This document shows, piece after piece, positions 8,535 through 62,004 of a stretch of 64,000 bases of DNA. How positions within the stretch are numbered: position 1 is the stretch's first letter; every line of letters starts with the position of its first letter. This stretch comes from an uncultured Mycoplasma sp. (lineage in GTDB: Bacteria; Bacillota_I; Bacilli_A; RF39; UBA660). Location: positions 1,574 through 65,573 of the forward strand of contig CAMEXD010000006.1 in the NCBI GenBank assembly GCA_945947035.1, in the 5' to 3' direction. Below the pieces are notes generated by a model. That model made no database searches. It saw only the letters and a program-made list of their open reading frames with translations, and was not told where the DNA came from. A program made the translations under genes and the position numbers.

Positions 8535-9897
8535 AATTAAAGAAATTAGAGATTTTTTAAATGGTGAATTTATTAATTCTACTAAAAATTATAATATAGA
8601 TAATATTTCAACCAATAGTAAAGATGTTACTAGTAGTTCTTTATTTATTCCTATAATTGGAGAAAATCATGATGGCCATAATTTTATGGAAGATGCTTAT
8701 AATAATGGCTGTAAAAACTTTTTAATAGATAAGAATCATACCTTTGATAAAACTGATGTTAATTTAATAAAGGTAGATGATACAACAATTGCTTTAGGAA
8801 ATCTTGCTTCCGCTTATAAAGAAATGTTTAAAGTAGTATGCGTTGGAGTAACAGGAAGTGTTGGTAAAACATCAACTAGAGATATTATTTATTCTGTTAT
8901 AAGTAAACAATACAAAACACTTAAAAATGAAGGCAATTTGAATAATAATATTGGTATTCCTAAAACTTTATTTAACCTAGATAAAAGTTATAAAGTTGCA
9001 GTTATTGAAATGGGTATGAATCATAAAGGCGAAATTAAATATTTAACTGATATGGTAAATCCTTATATTGCGGTCATTTCTAATATTGGATTATCTCATA
9101 TTGAAAACTTTGAAAATCAAGAAGAAATTTTTAAAGCAAAAATGGAAATAACTTCTAATTTTAATAAAAACAATATTTTGATAGTTAATGGCGATGATCC
9201 TTATTTAAAAAAAGTTAAACCTAAAAATCCTGAATATAGAGTTTATACTTATGGTTTTTCTAAATCAAATGATATTTATTGTACTAATTATGTAATAGGA
9301 AAAGACTATATTGATTTTACTTGTATCATTAATTATAACGAAGAGTATTTTAGAATTCCAACTATTGCCAAACATAATATTTATAATGCTATGGCTGCGA
9401 TACTTGTTGCCATAAACCTTAATATTGGACTTCCTAAAATAAAGGAAGGATTAAGAAATTTTACACTAACTAAAGGAAGACAAACTATTATAGAAAAAAA
9501 ATATCTAACTATAATTGATGATAGTTATAACGCTAGTTTAGATTCCGTTAAAAGTGCAGTTGATGTTTTAAATAATTTTAAAACAAGAAGAGTTGCTATT
9601 TTAGGAGATATTCTTGAAACAGGATCTTATAATGAAGAAATTCACAAAAATATTGGAGCATATCTACCTAAAAAAATTGACTTTTTAATTGCAGTAGGTC
9701 CTTCTTCAAAATATATAATAGATGAAGCTATAAAACAAGGATTTAATAAAGATAACATTGTTCATTTTGACACCTATGAAAATCTTTTAACTAACATAAC
9801 AAAATTACTACAAAAAAATGATACAGTTTTAGTAAAAGCATCTCATGGTATTAAATTATATGAAGTAGTGGAGTATTTAAACAAATTTTATGAATAA
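8521..9897 (+). CDS. murF: UDP-MurNAc-tripeptide--D-Ala-D-Ala ligase
   Basis: GENHDGH, GVTGSVGKTST, NNNIGIP, EMGMNH, DDSYNAS, KASHG. Confidence 0.93.
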   Translation: MEKIRIKEIRDFLNGEFINSTKNYNIDNISTNSKDVTSSSLFIPIIGENHDGHNFMEDAYNNGCKNFLIDKNHTFDKTDVNLIKVDDTTIALGNLASAYKEMFKVVCVGVTGSVGKTSTRDIIYSVISKQYKTLKNEGNLNNNIGIPKTLFNLDKSYKVAVIEMGMNHKGEIKYLTDMVNPYIAVISNIGLSHIENFENQEEIFKAKMEITSNFNKNNILIVNGDDPYLKKVKPKNPEYRVYTYGFSKSNDIYCTNYVIGKDYIDFTCIINYNEEYFRIPTIAKHNIYNAMAAILVAINLNIGLPKIKEGLRNFTLTKGRQTIIEKKYLTIIDDSYNASLDSVKSAVDVLNNFKTRRVAILGDILETGSYNEEIHKNIGAYLPKKIDFLIAVGPSSKYIIDEAIKQGFNKDNIVHFDTYENLLTNITKLLQKNDTVLVKASHGIKLYEVVEYLNKFYE

Positions 9898-18202: not shown

Positions 18203-19940
18203 AGAGTTATACATAAATTATTTTGTAAGTAAAGGACACAAACAAATTCCAAGTGCTCCAGTTGTACCTGAGAATGATCCATCAGTTTTATTTAATACCG
18301 CAGGAATGCAACCTCTTGTACCTTATTTGCTAGGTGAAGTACATCCTTATGGTACAAGACTTTGTGATTATCAAAAATGTGTTAGAACAAATGACTTGGA
18401 TGAAGTTGGTGATACAACTCACCATACCTTTTTTGAAATGTTAGGCAATTGGAGTTTGGGAGATTACTTTAAAGAAGAAGCTATACCATTAAGTTATGAA
18501 TTTTTAACTAAAGTTTTAAATATTCCCCAAGAACGTTTAGCTGTAACCTTATTTAGAGGTAATACTTTAGTACCAAAAGATGAAACATCTTATAATATTT
18601 GGAAAAGTCTTGGTATAAAAGATTCTAGAATTAAATTTTTATCTGAAGAAGATAATTGGTGGCCTAATATGGAACTTACTGGACCATGTGGACCAGATAC
18701 TGAAATATTTTATTTTAGAAGTGATGATGAAATACCAGTTGATTTTGATCCAAATGATGATAGATGGGTTGAAATCTGGAATAATGTTTTTATGGAATAT
18801 TATCATAATGCTGATGGTACTTTTAGTGAATTACCTAAGAAAAACGTTGATACTGGAATGGGATTAGAACGTACTACTGCTATTTTAGAGGGCGTTAACG
18901 ACAACTATTTATCAAGTGTTTTTAAAGATGTAATTGATTTAATATGCGATATTTCAAATCTTCCTTATTCTGGTAATGAAAAAAGTATGAGAATTATTGC
19001 AGATCATATAAGAACTGCAGTATTTATAAGTGCAGATTATTCATCAATTAAACCATCTAACACTGATCAAGGTTATATTTTAAGAAGACTTATAAGACGT
19101 ATGATAAGACATGCTAAAAAATTAGGTATCGATATAAATAGTAATTTTGAAGAAAGACTTGCTCTTCTAATTATAGAAAAGTATCAAAAATATTATAAAG
19201 AATTAAGTGATAATAAAGATGTTGTATTAAATGTTTTAAAAGAAGAAAAAAATAAGTTTAATAAAACATTAGAAAAGGGCTTAAAAGTATTTAATAAATG
19301 CACTTTAGATAATCAAAATATTGATAAAGAAACTGCTTTTCATTTGTACGATACATATGGTTTTCCAATTGAATTAACTGAAGAGCTTGCAAGTGAAAAA
19401 GGCTTAAAAGTTGATATAGATGGTTTTAATGAATTATTTAAGAAACATCAAGAATTATCAAGAACAGCTTCCGCTGGTAAATTTAAAGGTGGTTTATCAG
19501 GAAATAGCAAAAAAGAAATAGAATATCATACTGCAACACACCTTTTAAATGCAGCTTTAAAAAAAGTTTTGGGAGATTCTGTTCATCAAAAAGGAAGTAA
19601 TATAACTGAAGAACGTATGAGATTTGATTTTTCTTGGAATGCTAAAATGACTCCAGAAGAAATAAAAGAAACTGAAGATTTGGTAAATAAATATATTAGT
19701 GAAAAAATAGATGTTGAAATTTTGACAATGGACAAAGAAGATGCTATAAAAAGTGGTGCTGAATGTATGTTTATTGAAAAATATCCAGATGTTGTTACTG
19801 TTTATAAAATAGGTGATGTATCTATGGAATTATGTGGTGGACCTCATGTAAAAAATACTGGTGAACTAGGACATTTTAAAATTATAAAAGAAGAATCATC
19901 ATCTTCTGGAGTAAGAAGAATTAAAGCTATTTTAGAGTAA
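18192..19940 (+). CDS. alaS: Alanine--tRNA ligase, short form (~582 aa)
   Basis: LFNTAGMQPL, HHTFFEMLGN, DTGMGLER, HTATHLL, ELCGGPHV; ends at GVRRIKAILE. Confidence 0.93.
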   Translation: MNLRELYINYFVSKGHKQIPSAPVVPENDPSVLFNTAGMQPLVPYLLGEVHPYGTRLCDYQKCVRTNDLDEVGDTTHHTFFEMLGNWSLGDYFKEEAIPLSYEFLTKVLNIPQERLAVTLFRGNTLVPKDETSYNIWKSLGIKDSRIKFLSEEDNWWPNMELTGPCGPDTEIFYFRSDDEIPVDFDPNDDRWVEIWNNVFMEYYHNADGTFSELPKKNVDTGMGLERTTAILEGVNDNYLSSVFKDVIDLICDISNLPYSGNEKSMRIIADHIRTAVFISADYSSIKPSNTDQGYILRRLIRRMIRHAKKLGIDINSNFEERLALLIIEKYQKYYKELSDNKDVVLNVLKEEKNKFNKTLEKGLKVFNKCTLDNQNIDKETAFHLYDTYGFPIELTEELASEKGLKVDIDGFNELFKKHQELSRTASAGKFKGGLSGNSKKEIEYHTATHLLNAALKKVLGDSVHQKGSNITEERMRFDFSWNAKMTPEEIKETEDLVNKYISEKIDVEILTMDKEDAIKSGAECMFIEKYPDVVTVYKIGDVSMELCGGPHVKNTGELGHFKIIKEESSSSGVRRIKAILE

Positions 19941-35046: not shown

Positions 35047-35130
35047 GGAGGGATAGCGAAGTGGTCAAACGCGGCAGACTGTAAATCTGTTCTTTCGGGT
35101 TCCATGGTTCAAATCCATGTCCCTCCACCA
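35047..35130 (+). tRNA. tRNA-Tyr(GUA)
   Basis: Long variable arm, anticodon gta, CCA. Confidence 0.95.
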
Positions 35131-35147
35131 CTCGTTTTAGCATAAAT

Positions 35148-35222
35148 TGCCTCGTAGCCAAGCGGTAAGGCACCACACTTTGACTGTGGCATTCGCTAGT
35201 TCGAGTCTAGCCGAGGCAACCA
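35148..35222 (+). tRNA. tRNA-Gln(UUG)
   Basis: U1-A72 acceptor pair, anticodon ttg, CCA. Confidence 0.93.
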
Positions 35223-35227
35223 GCTAT

Positions 35228-35303
35228 GTTCCGTTAGCTCAGTCGGTAGAGCATTTGACTTTTAATCAAAGGGTCTGGAGTTCGAATCTCCAGCGGGACA
35301 CCA
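35228..35303 (+). tRNA. tRNA-Lys(UUU)
   Basis: Anticodon ttt, CCA. Confidence 0.95.
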
Positions 35304-35309
35304 TTTTTT

Positions 35310-35398
35310 GCCTGAGTGGCGGAATAGGTAGACGCACAGGACTTAAAATCCTGCGTGATTAATCTCACGTGCCAGTTCAAGTCTGGCCTTAGGCACCA
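35310..35398 (+). tRNA. tRNA-Leu(UAA)
   Basis: Long variable arm, anticodon taa, CCA. Confidence 0.95.
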
Positions 35399-35413
35399 TT
35401 TTTTTATCTACAC

Positions 35414-35504
35414 GGAGGAATACCCAAGTCTGGTTGAAGGGACTGGTCTTGAAAACCAGGAGGTCGGCGACGGCGCAGGGGTTCGAATCCCTTTTCCTCC
35501 GCCA
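35414..35504 (+). tRNA. tRNA-Ser(UGA)
   Basis: Long variable arm, anticodon tga, CCA. Confidence 0.95.
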
Positions 35505-35516
35505 AACTTTTTATAT

Positions 35517-35593
<77 letters not shown>

Positions 35594-35595
35594 AT

Positions 35596-35671
35596 GGTTC
35601 CGTGGTGTAGTGGTTATCACGCCTGCCTGTCACGCAGGAGATCGTGGGTTCGAGCCCCATCGGAACCGCCA
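35596..35671 (+). tRNA. tRNA-Asp(GUC)
   Basis: Anticodon gtc, CCA. Confidence 0.95.
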
Positions 35672-35675
35672 TTTT

Positions 35676-35751
<76 letters not shown>

Positions 35752-36317: not shown

Positions 36318-37115
36318 TTGAAAACTAGGATAATTAGTGCTCTTGTTATGTTAATTATTACCATTCCAATTTTATTTCTTGGTGGTATACCATTTAAACT
36401 TTTTGCTGTGTTTCTAGGTTTGTGTTCTTTGTATGAATTATTAAAAACAAGGGAAACAAAAAAGAAATTTCCTTTATCTATAAAGATTTTTTCTTATATA
36501 ATACTCGCAATAATTATATATTTTAGTAACACAAATTCTATTAATTATCATATTAATTATATTTATATTGTTTCAGCTTTTTGCCTTATACTATTGCCAA
36601 TTATTTTTATTAATGACAATGAAAAATATAATATAGATGATGCATTATTTTTAATAGGAAGTATGGTATTTTTAGGAATTGTTTTTAATTCATTTATAAT
36701 TATTAGACAAACAAGCTTTAATAATTTTATATATTTGCTTTTGATAACAATATTTACTGATACTTTTGCTTTAATTAGTGGAAAGTTAATTGGAAAAAAT
36801 AAATTGTGTGAAAGAATTTCTCCAAATAAAACTATTGAAGGTTCTATTGGAGGAAGTATCTTCGGTACACTAATAGCAACTATGTATTATCTAATTGTTA
36901 TAAATTCAACTGCTAATGTTTTATTGGTTTTAATATTTACATTATTGTTTAGCATTATTGGACAATTTGGAGATTTATTTTTTTCAAGTATAAAACGTCA
37001 TTATAAAGTAAAAGACTTTTCAAATATTATCCCTGGTCATGGTGGTATATTAGATCGTCTTGATAGTTTTATATTTGTTGTAATATTATATGTAATATTT
37101 ATTAATATTTTATAA
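36318..37115 (+). CDS. cdsA: Phosphatidate cytidylyltransferase
   Basis: [40 protein letters not shown]. Confidence 0.95.
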
Positions 37116-37126
37116 GGAGGAAATTT

Positions 37127-38170
37127 ATGATTATTACTTTATTATTATTTATATTGATACTTGGAGTGACTATTTTTGTTCACGAATTAGGACATTTTAT
37201 ATTTGCTAAATTATCAGGTGTTCATGTTTACGAATTTGCTTTGGGATTTGGTCCAGTTTTATTTAAAAAAATTGCTAAGGATGGTACTCAATATGCAATT
37301 AGGGCAGTACCATTAGGTGGATTTGTATCCATGGCTGGGGAAGAAGTGGAATATGATAGAGAAAAACATAAAGGAAAAAATATGCAGGACAAAACATTCT
37401 GGCAAAGATTTCTTATTATGTTCATGGGAGTTGGTAACAATTTTATATTTGCTTTTTTTATTCTATTACTAATTGGTTTTGTTTTTGGTGCTCCAAATCT
37501 TGATCCAATAATAACTGATGTTAATGAAAACTATCCTGCTGCTATAGTGGGAATTGAAAAAGGCGATAAGGTGTTATCAATAAATGGCCATAAAGTAAAA
37601 TATATTGATGATATTTCTTTATATATGACTCTTGCTGATTTAGAAAATAATCTTGTATTTGAGGTAGAAAAACAAACTGGTGAAAAAATCTCATATGAGA
37701 TTGAACCACTTAAACAAACAATAGATGGTCAAGATAGTTACGTTATTGGAATAGTACTTTCTAAACAACCAGAAAAGGGATTTTTTAAATCAATTGATTT
37801 TGCTTTCAAACAGGAAGCAGCAATTATTAAACAGATGTTAGTTGTATTAAAATCACTATTTACTGGAGGATTATCAATTAATAAACTAAGTGGCCCAGTT
37901 GGAATATATTCAATTGTAGATCAATATAAAGCTCAAGGATTGAATTCGCTTTTATATTTAGTTGCATTACTAAGTGTTAATGTTGCTATAATAAATTTAA
38001 TTCCTTTACCTGCTTTTGATGGAGGTAGAATTTTGTTCCTTATTATTGAAAAAATTAAGGGTTCTCCTATTAATCCTAAAGTGGAAAATATGATTCATTC
38101 AATAGGATTTATTTTACTAATGATTCTTATGATTTATATTACATTTAATGATATCCTAAGATTATTTTAA
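37127..38170 (+). CDS. rseP: RIP metalloprotease RseP
   Basis: HELGH, PDZ domain, NLIPLPAFDGG. Confidence 0.95.
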   Translation: MIITLLLFILILGVTIFVHELGHFIFAKLSGVHVYEFALGFGPVLFKKIAKDGTQYAIRAVPLGGFVSMAGEEVEYDREKHKGKNMQDKTFWQRFLIMFMGVGNNFIFAFFILLLIGFVFGAPNLDPIITDVNENYPAAIVGIEKGDKVLSINGHKVKYIDDISLYMTLADLENNLVFEVEKQTGEKISYEIEPLKQTIDGQDSYVIGIVLSKQPEKGFFKSIDFAFKQEAAIIKQMLVVLKSLFTGGLSINKLSGPVGIYSIVDQYKAQGLNSLLYLVALLSVNVAIINLIPLPAFDGGRILFLIIEKIKGSPINPKVENMIHSIGFILLMILMIYITFNDILRLF

Positions 38171-59354: not shown

Positions 59355-59612
59355 ATGATAGATAATTATTATTTATTTAAAAACTTACCAAGTATTGATT
59401 TACATGGTATGAATAGATATGAAGCTAAAGTAAAAATAGATTATTTTATTTTAGAAAATAAAAAATTAAATAATCATTTAATAGCTATTGTTCATGGTAA
59501 AGGATCAGGCGTTTTAAAAACTTGTGTTCAAAATATTTTAAAAGAAAATAAAAATGTTAAAGCATTTAAAATAAATATTTACAATGATGGAGAAACAATT
59601 GTAGAAATATAA
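59355..59612 (+). CDS. Smr/MutS2 C-terminal domain protein
   Basis: IDLHG, IVHGKGSGVLK, NDGETIV. Confidence 0.9.
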   Translation: MIDNYYLFKNLPSIDLHGMNRYEAKVKIDYFILENKKLNNHLIAIVHGKGSGVLKTCVQNILKENKNVKAFKINIYNDGETIVEI

Positions 59613-59729: not shown

Positions 59730-61619
59730 ATGAATTTCTTTAAAAAATTTAATAAATTAGATTTCGGTGATAAAGAAAAAAAGAAAAAAATAATATCACT
59801 TGCAGTAACTATCTTAGGAATTTTATTAATAGTAACAGGAACAAGCGCAGCTTATTTAATGAGTCAAAAAGAAGGTACTAAAAATACGATAACTGCAGGA
59901 ACACTAGTTCTTAGTCTTCCAACAGAAAGCGAAGGAATAACATTAAATGGTGCATTACCAATAAGTGATGAAGCAGGTGTTTCTGGAAGTAATAGTTATA
60001 CATTTGTTTTAAAAAATTCTGGAACATTAAAAATGAATTATGCAATATATCTAAAAAATAAATGTTCAACAACTTCATCTGTAACTATAGGAAGTGAAAC
60101 AATAACACCAGATATATGTATACCAAATGAATATATAAAAGTAGGAATAAAAAAAGGAACAGAAGATTATAAAATATTAACATTAGATAACGATGAATTA
60201 CTTATGAAAGGAACAATGAATTCAAATGAAACCATAGATTTTTCATTAAAAATATGGTTAGATGAAAATATACCAAATGAATATAATGCAATATTAAATG
60301 GAGTAGAAAGAAATGTTATTTATTATGGAAAACTTGAATTAACTGGAAAGCAAACAGCATCTTTAGATACAAGTGGAGCAAATAAACCAGTTCTAGCAAC
60401 AGGAATGATACCAGTATATTATGATGAAACAAATGAAGTATGGAAAAAAGCAGATGAAGCAAATAAGGAAGTAGAAAATAAATGGTATGATTATGATAGT
60501 AAAATGTGGGCTAATGCAGTAACAGTAAGTGATACAAATAGAGATACTTATGTAAAAGCAACTGCAGGAACACCAATTTCTATGGATGATATAAATACAA
60601 TGTGGGTGTGGATACCAAGATTTAGCGCAACTGGTGATACAGCAAATTATAATGGAGGAACAATAGACAATCCTGGAGCATTTAATATAACATTTGTAGA
60701 TAACAAAACAACAGCTCATGATGCATTTACTTTTGGAACACAAAGCTTAAATGGATTTTGGGTAGGCAAGTTTGAAACAAGTCACAATACATTATCAAGT
60801 AGTGAAACAGCAAATAATTTAGGATGTACAAGTGATACTTGTAGTAATGCAAATGGAATAATAATAAAACCAAATGTAGTATCATTAAGATATAATAATG
60901 TAAGTAATTTCTTTTATGCAAATTTAAGTATGAAACAAAGTGGCAATAGTTTTGGTTTTGATACTGGCATAGATACAACATTAGATACGCATATGATGAA
61001 AAACAATGAATGGGGTGCAGTAGCATATTTAACTCAAAGTATATATGGCAGATGTACATCATCAACTTTTTGTACTGAAGTAGGAATAAATAATAATAGC
61101 AGTTTTATAACAGGATATGGAGCACCTGCAGGAAGTAGTAGTTCAGTAACAAATGGTACATACGAAACTGATTTAGGAAAAGATGCATCAACAACAGGAA
61201 ACATTTATGGTGTATATGATATGAGTGGAGGATCATATGAATATATAATGGGCGTATATACAGATGGTACACAAAACTGGTCAGGACGTGGTTCAACATC
61301 TAATTCAGGATTTAGTGGATGCTTAGGAAGTGGTTGTAGTAGTACCTATGATGGAGTAGCATATCCAGAAAGTAGATATTATAATAGTTATACAACAAGT
61401 ACAAATTATACCAATGCTAACTTACAACATGCCCTTACGGAAACACAAAATTGGTTTAGTGATGCCGCGAACTTCGTAAGTGCCGGTTACCCTTGGTTCT
61501 TACGTGGCGGTTCCTTCGGCAACGGTTCAAGTGCGGGTGTTTTCTACTATAATCGCTTCATCAGCAGCGGCGCTAGCTACAGCGGAGGCAGTTCCAGGTC
61601 CTCTCTAATAATTAACTAA
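59730..61619 (+). CDS. Surface protein with SipW/TasA-camelysin-like N-terminus and C-terminal CLec (FGE-like) domain; probable DGR target
   Basis: GTSAAY signal and NTITAGTL; GFWVGKFE, KNNEWGA, TTGNIYGVYDMSGGSYE, PWFLRGG. Confidence 0.8.
   Translation: MNFFKKFNKLDFGDKEKKKKIISLAVTILGILLIVTGTSAAYLMSQKEGTKNTITAGTLVLSLPTESEGITLNGALPISDEAGVSGSNSYTFVLKNSGTLKMNYAIYLKNKCSTTSSVTIGSETITPDICIPNEYIKVGIKKGTEDYKILTLDNDELLMKGTMNSNETIDFSLKIWLDENIPNEYNAILNGVERNVIYYGKLELTGKQTASLDTSGANKPVLATGMIPVYYDETNEVWKKADEANKEVENKWYDYDSKMWANAVTVSDTNRDTYVKATAGTPISMDDINTMWVWIPRFSATGDTANYNGGTIDNPGAFNITFVDNKTTAHDAFTFGTQSLNGFWVGKFETSHNTLSSSETANNLGCTSDTCSNANGIIIKPNVVSLRYNNVSNFFYANLSMKQSGNSFGFDTGIDTTLDTHMMKNNEWGAVAYLTQSIYGRCTSSTFCTEVGINNNSSFITGYGAPAGSSSSVTNGTYETDLGKDASTTGNIYGVYDMSGGSYEYIMGVYTDGTQNWSGRGSTSNSGFSGCLGSGCSSTYDGVAYPESRYYNSYTTSTNYTNANLQHALTETQNWFSDAANFVSAGYPWFLRGGSFGNGSSAGVFYYNRFISSGASYSGGSSRSSLIIN
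61461..61601 (+). other. Putative DGR variable region (VR)
   Basis: 78/140 bases G+C (56%) in an AT-rich gene; 25 of 47 codons end in C. Confidence 0.75.
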
Positions 61620-61643
61620 TTGTTAATTTTAACAATTAGTTAA
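61612..61643. repeat. Perfect 15-bp inverted repeat at the 3' end of the putative DGR target
   Basis: ttaactaattgttaa-tt-ttaacaattagttaa. Confidence 0.85.
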
Positions 61644-61679: not shown

Positions 61680-62004
61680 TTAATTTTTTCTAAATCCCCA
61701 TTTAATAATGTCATTAGTAGATTGATTTATAATACCACAGTAAGGACAATATTTAGGATTATAGGTTAAAACACCTTCAATTATTTTATAATTCTTTCCT
61801 TTTATTGTTTTTTCGTTACATTCTGTAATAATATGAATATTTTCATCTTTAATATTTAATAAATTTAATATATAATTATTTATAGACATAAGTTTGCTCC
61901 TTTCAATGTTTTGTAAGCAATTACATTGTATCAAACTTATGTCATTTTTAGTAAACAAAAATAGCGTTAGCAAAATTTCCGCCAACACTATTTATAATAC
62001 AACC
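61680..62004 (-). mobile_element. Truncated ISL3-family IS: left end plus N-terminal transposase fragment (61889-61680)
   Basis: ILNLLNIKD..LTYNPKYCPYCG....KWGF zinc-finger N-terminus then stop; end reads GGTTGTATTATAAATAGTGTTGG on the minus strand. Confidence 0.75.

Follow-up and report, generated by a model that had tools for sequence, protein, structure and literature searches.

A variable surface-protein gene as a probable remote target of a diversity-generating retroelement in an uncultured, AT-rich gut bacterium

The stretch of DNA analysed here, referred to as the window, comprises 64 kb (contig C6:1574-65573) of the assembly of an uncultured Mycoplasma sp. (1.17 Mb in 42 contigs, 24.5% G+C, estimated to be 70.9% complete). 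It harbors a gene encoding a protein of 629 residues (the target), the last codons of which differ sharply in base composition from the rest of the gene. Is this tail a variable region (VR) written by a diversity-generating retroelement (DGR), even though the window holds neither a template repeat (TR) nor a reverse transcriptase (RT)? The absence of both, as stated in the initial annotation, applies to the window and to the whole assembly alike. Nevertheless, positions 61458-61602 are very probably the VR of a remote DGR target, written from a cassette that consists of a MutS-like gene, a template termed TR2, bAvd and an RT.

Adenine-biased divergence of the variable region from a template in a relative's cassette

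The last 47 codons of the target have a G+C content of 51.8%, compared to 30.1% in the rest of the gene; 23 of them are NNC codons (49%, versus 5.3%), and the adenine fraction is 0.19 versus 0.42. The initial annotation had put this jump at 56% G+C with 25 NNC codons. Both the jump and the enrichment were reproduced, whereas the figures were not, since 56% is the value of the peak 141-nt window starting at 61461. Along the gene, the G+C content reaches 0.53 at 61450-61599, compared to 0.21-0.39 over the remaining parts. The NFV, PWF-RGG and AGVF motifs attributed to the tail were found in the translation. Within the 64 kb, this G+C content is matched only at 35047-35751 on the plus strand (above 0.55), where eight tRNA genes (Tyr, Gln, Lys, Leu, Ser, Met, Asp and Phe) are clustered.

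Search by tblastn revealed about 15 copies of the 415-residue core domain of the target in the genome, seven of which (C6 in the window, C10, C15, C1, C8, C16 and C14, named by contig) share the same 3' end, namely SSRSSLIIN and the stop codon followed by a hairpin site. The flanks of these seven copies are near-identical, but the copies themselves differ heavily, almost exclusively at positions 1-2 of AAC or AAT (AAY-type) codons. From the seven copies alone we built a predicted TR, in which an A was placed wherever the copies vary. This predicted TR was not found in this assembly, in 151 genomes of the family or in 8 genomes of the genus. Scans with TR patterns gave no match in viral contigs, and nothing but the VR of genome G005 itself in GTDB genome contigs; in JGI metagenome contigs the TR-specific pattern had no match and a permissive pattern picked up one distant relative.

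The template was reached through the RT. A search of a large protein collection with the RT of G005, followed by reading the contigs of the closest homologues, led to L060, a public Logan contig of 5164 bp that carries a cassette in the order MutS-like gene, TR2, bAvd and RT (Table 1). The RT of G005 is 73% identical to that of L060. The TR2 core consists of 46 adenines and 93 other bases, and is identical to the predicted TR at 136 of 139 positions. A template differing at adenines and lying next to an RT and Avd, as looked for by the initial annotation, is thus present in the contig of a relative, not in the assembly itself.

A gapped alignment of the window VR against TR2 showed that 24 of 46 adenines are changed, compared to 11 of 93 other bases (Fisher p=6.5e-7). 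The other six copies display the same bias, with changes at adenines and at other bases of 16/46 and 2/93 in C1 (p=2.4e-7), 20/46 and 3/93 in C14 (p=6.9e-9), 17/46 and 6/93 in C10 (p=1.4e-5), 14/46 and 6/93 in C8 (p=4.5e-4), 19/46 and 10/93 in C15 (p=9.0e-5), and 16/45 and 8/91 in C16 (p=2.4e-4), whereas the control paralogues C5 and C24a have no adenine bias. We further pooled seven equal-length VRs, of which five belong to this genome and two to the orthologue L054 and to G005:C67. At the TR2 adenines, 41 of 46 sites vary and 120 of 322 cells are changed (37%), compared to 20 of 95 sites and 36 of 665 cells (5%) at the non-adenine positions, which corresponds to a ~7-fold enrichment of substitutions at adenines. 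Moreover, two positions at which the TR of L060 differs from all VRs here account for 14 of the 36 non-adenine changes. The adenines are replaced by G, T and C, with the changes located at codon positions 1-2. Judged from these alignments, the window VR is clearly adenine-mutagenised.

The target locus was also found in two other metagenomes (L054 and L068, from pig-gut samples) with the same neighbors, Flg_new, Smr, target, SSPI, LemA and DUF2207. Pairwise DNA identity among the three orthologous loci is 97.4-99.1% in the flanking genes and 94.5-96.5% in the first 600 nt of the gene, and 70-77% in its last 150 nt. The three VRs are different, yet each fits TR2, with 15/46 adenines and 4/93 other bases changed in L054, and 21/46 and 6/93 in L068; exchange among paralogues also contributes to the differences. 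The strain-level variation at this locus looks, at the sequence level, like the kind that a DGR makes.

Taken with the divergence concentrated at adenines, the presence of TR2 in the MutS-like/bAvd/RT cassette of a near-identical relative supports the remote chromosomal DGR target postulated by the initial annotation. We propose that the target is a secreted or anchored surface protein, in which the C-terminal 415 residues would adopt the lectin-type fold known from DGR variable proteins, with the final ~48 residues forming a tip that may bind ligands at the cell surface. The TR in the remote cassette, made up of the MutS-like gene, TR2, bAvd and the RT, would be transcribed and then reverse-transcribed with random misincorporation opposite adenines, and the resulting complementary DNA would replace the VR; the 3' boundary AGTTCCAGGTCCT, together with the stop-codon hairpin, would guide this replacement. 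In this way, seven or more paralogues scattered over the genome would be served by TR2, and paralogue C3 by a template of a second class, TR1.

Whereabouts of the cassette and competing explanations

Several results weigh against this proposal. In this assembly, a six-frame Pfam search gave no RVT_1 match, and tblastn with the cassette proteins of relatives gave neither RT nor Avd; altogether, neither RT, Avd, the MutS-like accessory gene (MSL) nor TR was found in an assembly that is 70.9% complete. In addition, the window VR is the least clean of the target copies: it has 11 non-adenine mismatches and two extra codons (6 nt) compared to TR2, and is therefore not a direct product of exactly the TR2 of L060. 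Downstream of paralogues C8 and C5 lie remnants of the MSL, which run through its first ~28-33 codons and then into unrelated sequence; broken 5' pieces of this kind imply that copies of the cassette have been lost or partly duplicated in the lineage. Finally, the 450 nt ahead of the VR (600-150 nt before the stop codon) are 72-86% identical between orthologues, one of which has a domain inserted. Recombination among paralogues therefore also contributes, and part of the orthologue divergence, as far as the sequences indicate, comes from paralogue exchange rather than from DGR action.

Comparison with L060 indicates where the cassette would be expected. The segment 2251-5164 of L060 is 95.7% identical to contig C11:37-2951 of this assembly, and C11 begins with a repeat of ~55 nt that contains a hairpin and also ends C8 (3'), C35 (5'), C17 (3') and C36 (5'). 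The assembly therefore breaks exactly at the expected cassette site. A cassette located between two such repeats would span ~2.2 kb, which is shorter than the smallest contig kept in the bin (2608 bp). Thus, it is plausible that the cassette was lost in assembly or binning, and we infer that it is, or recently was, in this genome just upstream of C11. The repeat at the five contig ends reads AAGATTAAGTTGAACAGTATGGAAGTTAGTGTCCAACTTAACTTTTYAATTAACA, with an imperfect hairpin AAGTTGAAC...GTCCAACTT inside; it resembles the terminus of a mobile element present in several copies, possibly of the IS200/IS605 type, with an unassembled body.

One alternative is a fossil VR: a DGR would once have written it, the cassette would since have been lost from this strain, and the frozen tip would now be altered by ordinary mutation and paralogue exchange alone. 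It would agree with the failure to find RT, Avd and TR, with the MSL remnants, and with the 11 non-adenine mismatches and the indel of the window VR, which are more than in C1 or C14. Besides, the VR of L068 shares many adenine-derived substitutions with G005:C67, and therefore some VRs have been inherited, not rewritten. On the other side, the assembly is estimated to be 71% complete, the cassette site of the 95.7%-identical relative coincides here with a contig break at a multi-copy repeat, and the cassette itself would fall below the size of the smallest binned contig. Furthermore, C1 and C14 fit TR2 almost perfectly, arguing for recent writing, and the boundary and hairpin are intact in the window copy. 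We consider a fossil VR less likely than not. As for the deviations of the window VR from TR2, the probable source is either a slightly different TR allele carrying six AAC codons or drift since the last homing. The two extra codons fall within a run of AAC codons in which C16 has a two-codon excess as well, and are NNC codons themselves (CGC, TTC...); by their sequence, they look like the product of a six-AAC template or of slippage on the AAC run.

The hairpin at the stop codon (61612-61643) folds into a 14-bp stem and a 4-nt loop, with a free energy of -10.6 kcal/mol (z -5.1; 0 of 200 shuffled sequences as good). It had been described as a perfect 15-bp hairpin, of which the perfect 15-nt inverted repeat is correct and the stem is one pair shorter. 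The element directly ahead of it, AGTTCCAGGTCCT, resembles an initiation-of-mutagenic-homing (IMH) site and is invariant among the paralogues. Among the seven TR2-class copies, five have a hairpin over the stop codon with a stem of 12-16 bp and a loop of 4-6 nt, as does C3, and the hairpins of C10 and C16 are degenerate; paralogue C5 has one of wholly different sequence but the same geometry, and the non-diversified paralogues C1b, C4 and C24b have no such hairpin. Hairpin presence thus tracks target status among the paralogues. In phage BPP-1, efficient homing depends on a hairpin or cruciform located downstream of the VR, the stem of which matters by its structure but not by its sequence (PMC3240598). 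By analogy, and on the strength of this correlation, the role in homing assigned to the hairpin by the initial annotation is a fitting, albeit putative one.

The hairpin might also be just a transcription terminator or an mRNA-stabilising stem that plays no part in retrohoming, given its location at the 3' end of the gene and the further hairpins with T-runs that follow in several paralogues. We find this unlikely: the AT-rich hairpin extends into the coding sequence, with AAGAACTAACCCCCC rather than a T-run behind it; it is found in diversified paralogues of three VR classes and not in the non-diversified ones, with the geometry preserved in C5 despite the change in sequence; and its position just after the TR/VR boundary matches that of the BPP-1 element (PMC3240598).

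The non-diversified paralogues C1b, C4, C24a and C24b have the same PW[FI]-RGG...AGIF scaffold in ordinary AT-rich codons, with a G+C content of 0.31-0.39 at the 3' end, compared to 0.43-0.52 in the diversified copies; only the diversified subset therefore has the G+C jump, and a G+C-rich foreign donor of the tail was ruled out. That no retroelement is involved at all, the tail stemming from such a donor or being hypervariable through diversifying selection and gene conversion among paralogues, is highly improbable despite the real mosaic exchange noted above, because the TR was predicted from the paralogues before its discovery, was then found independently in a canonical DGR cassette, and differs from the VRs at 37% versus 5% of cells, with A changing to G, T and C at codon positions 1-2.

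Other cassettes were considered as donors. An RT of 340-374 residues is encoded in four of seven other genomes of the genus. In G005 (locus L017), a 137-residue MutS-like ORF is followed by TR1, an Avd-like ORF (NF033474 DivGenRetAVD, E 4e-15) and a 340-residue RT, directly downstream of the orthologue of C3; the same site in this genome runs straight into spoIIGA. Compared to TR1, paralogue C3 differs at TR adenines alone across the core. As the template for the class of the window VR, TR1 was excluded by dozens of non-adenine mismatches. The RT cassettes of G001, G006 and G004 were rejected for their unrelated TRs and targets ending in ...VRP..., and the TRs next to the RT homologues of L055, L057, L058 and L059 belong to other TR classes. 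An identity of 17 nt to the VR at C6:66139 lies in the Gly-rich tail of a DUF2207 protein and is a coincidence. In all six MSL-type cassettes (L017, L055, L057, L058, L059 and L060), the TR is flanked by conserved sequence, namely GTATCAACTTT..GGTATAGGGATAAAGC upstream and TAGTTYAAGGAC...AAGTACARGYTTTATTCCTKA...TAGTTTTRGGTGAGTA downstream, which probably corresponds to structured segments of the DGR RNA required for priming.

Predicted structure of the target and its paralogue family

Structure prediction by AlphaFold2 on the full-length target (40 sequences) yielded a confident β-sandwich at residues ~50-290, with a predicted local distance difference test score (pLDDT) below 50 nearly throughout from residue 290. 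By contrast, prediction on residues 215-629 alone (71 sequences) gave a pLDDT of 75.7 and a predicted template modelling score of 0.84. Structural similarity search of this 415-residue domain against the PDB using Foldseek revealed the chains of the DGR variable protein TaqVP (PDB 5VF4) as the only significant matches, the best with an E-value of 2.8e-5 and a probability of 1.00 over a full-length alignment, at template modelling (TM) scores of 0.42-0.46, followed by Mtd at an E-value of ~1. In a fold search of a viral library, the top matches were phage tail collar fibre and FGE-like proteins. At the sequence level, a profile search of the PDB with the target gave no match, and 11 of 71 relatives have weak FGE-sulfatase matches. 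Altogether, the predicted model supports a lectin-type fold for the C-terminal domain, in line with the C-type-lectin tip suggested by the initial annotation.

The N-terminal module gave generic β-sandwich or pilin-like matches alone in Foldseek (best TM-score 0.3-0.4), and no TasA structure. Residues 25-59 match TIGR04088 at 14.6 bits (E-value 0.027), short of its cut-off of 19; no Pfam family, Peptidase_M73 and FGE-sulfatase included, matches the target at E<=1, and one of the 71 relatives matches Peptidase_M73 (PF12389, E 0.0018). The proposed reading as a TasA/camelysin-like, possibly fibre-forming protein with a SipW-type signal is thus weakly supported: the signal is hinted at by a subthreshold score, and the TasA domain was not recovered. 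Five genes for SipW-type (archaeal-type) signal peptidase I exceed the TIGR02228 cut-off in this 1.17-Mb assembly, which is unusually many and consistent with a SipW-processed family.

The paralogues show further variation outside the tip. In C3, C10 and C15, a G run in the leader encodes GGG (...MGGGQVKK...), and the G-run leader and the DGR-type variable tip coincide in these same genes. A domain of ~165 residues (YKYNENKIE...GLDKGYVKNVKVL) is inserted between core and tip in paralogues C10, C15 and C1a and in the orthologue L068 (1806-4187), indicating domain-level mosaicism even between orthologous loci. We tentatively put forward, with somewhat less than even confidence, a three-layer combinatorial variation of the cell surface (gene on, stalk, tip): a poly-G leader would act as an on/off switch, recombination would shuffle the N-terminal modules, and one MSL-type cassette would write at least seven paralogue tips in a ~1.5-Mb genome, with TR1 serving others. 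The family takes up ~2% of this reduced genome.

Directly upstream of the target lies a stand-alone gene for an Smr domain (small MutS-related nuclease domain; 85 residues, 59355-59612, plus strand, 63 bits), a position kept at all three orthologous loci. Downstream, the site of the minus-strand ORF fragment at 61680-61988 is occupied by a Transposase_mut fragment in L054 and by nothing in L068; the fragment is therefore probably insertion debris.

Table 1. Positions of the features of the target gene, of the L060 cassette and of related genes (unprefixed positions refer to the window).
Feature	Location	Strand	Details
Target gene ORF, 629 residues	59730..61619	+	From ORF list; >7600 homologues at E<=1e-20
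Hydrophobic signal/anchor, then ...AAYL...NTITAGTL..., residues 25-59	59802..59906	+	Resembles SipW-dependent signal peptide
N-terminal β-sandwich module, ~residues 46-210	59865..60359	+	Specific to this paralogue and its orthologues; AlphaFold2 pLDDT ~75-89
Conserved 415-residue domain	60372..61616	+	Predicted DGR-variable-protein (C-type-lectin/FGE-type) fold; AlphaFold2 and Foldseek
VR, residues 577-625	61458..61602	+	Homologous to 139-nt TR2 core; G+C 0.52, A 0.19
Two-codon expansion AAT CGC TTC ATC AGC AGC	61551..61568	+	Six NNC/NNT codons; TR2 has four AAC codons there
IMH-like 3' boundary of TR/VR homology	61590..61611	+	AGTTCCAGGTCCT kept in TR2 and all seven VRs, then divergence
Hairpin/cruciform-forming inverted repeat	61612..61643	+	Overlaps last codons and stop TAA (61617-61619)
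3' flank AAGAACTA..CCCCCACTATAACGAAGAAGAGAAAAATTAATTTTTTCTAAA	61644..61693	+	Common to other target paralogues; cut short here by ORF fragment
ORF fragment, 102 residues	61680-61988	-	No Pfam match; interrupts conserved 3' flank of target
MutS-like ORF	L060 135-548		MutS_I 31.5 bits, above Pfam cut-off
TR2 core, 139 nt	L060 583-721		
bAvd	L060 907-1248		PF22296 56.1 bits, cut-off 40
DGR-type RT, 339 residues	L060 1229-2248		RVT_1 66.7 bits, above Pfam cut-off; IGNYTSQ and YMDD motifs
DHH, L9 and DnaB genes	L060, downstream of RT		
TR-flanking conserved regions	L017 611-968; L055 2819-3204; L057 694-1038; L058 ~8750-9142; L059 2991-3371; L060 549-906		
MutS-like remnants	C8 ~36976-37178; C5 ~18334-18432		
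SipW-type peptidase genes	C5:60262-60759; C1:25943-26341; C13:26441-26899; C16:13512-13862; C13:12388-12828		

Relation to known retroelements

The mechanism is already established, and the present result is therefore one of annotation and natural history, not a new principle. What is new is a well-supported case of a remote target, notable for how many paralogous targets one small genome has: a DGR that would act in trans on unusually many paralogous surface-protein genes of a small, uncultured, very AT-rich gut bacterium. Few DGRs with many remote targets are known, and this one extends them to a reduced genome of the Gram-positive type. Cassettes of this kind are located between repeats and go missing from metagenome bins, so that a target can look orphaned when it is not; the template was nonetheless predictable from the paralogues alone, and then recoverable from public data.

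Like the DGR of phage BPP-1 and its target Mtd, the present system combines adenine-specific TR-to-VR transfer with a 3' boundary element followed by a stem-loop with a 4-nt loop, and the different sequence but same geometry of the C5 hairpin parallels the immaterial stem sequence in BPP-1 (PMC3240598). However, the BPP-1 element is phage-borne with an adjacent target, whereas the stem here is longer (12-16 bp), AT-rich and placed over the stop codon, with a putative role in homing. TaqVP of Thermus aquaticus (PDB 5VF4) likewise has its VR at the C-terminal end; the sequence identity to the target domain is 15-16% at the TM-scores given above, and, unlike TaqVP, the target contains extended inserts rich in Ser/Thr/Asn/Gly and an additional module at its N terminus.

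Both MSL accessory genes and remote targets have been described for DGRs, and the combination of MSL and avd was found in 16 surveyed DGRs, including that of Legionella (PMC5758913). The DGR of Legionella pneumophila (target LdtA) shares with the present cassette a small MutS_I-like accessory gene and avd, but it resides in a mobile island with an adjacent lipoprotein target, in contrast to the remote paralogues of another surface-protein family here.

The closest parallel in organization is the DGR of Treponema denticola (TvpA), which is also chromosomal and non-phage, with one TR for several dispersed targets that are surface proteins with an FGE-type C-type-lectin tip. The present system differs in its host, a very AT-rich (24.5% G+C), uncultured gut Bacilli-type organism of ~1.2-1.6 Mb; in its cassette, which has a MutS-like accessory gene and the order MSL-TR-avd-RT; in its targets, which carry a SipW-type-looking signal and paralogue-specific N-terminal β-sandwich modules; and in the second TR class of the genus. 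No number above the seven non-adjacent targets of Treponema is cited in the 2017 survey (PMC5758913). In the present genome, TR2 fits at least seven paralogues, and if all of them are indeed served by one MSL-type cassette, this would equal or exceed that record.

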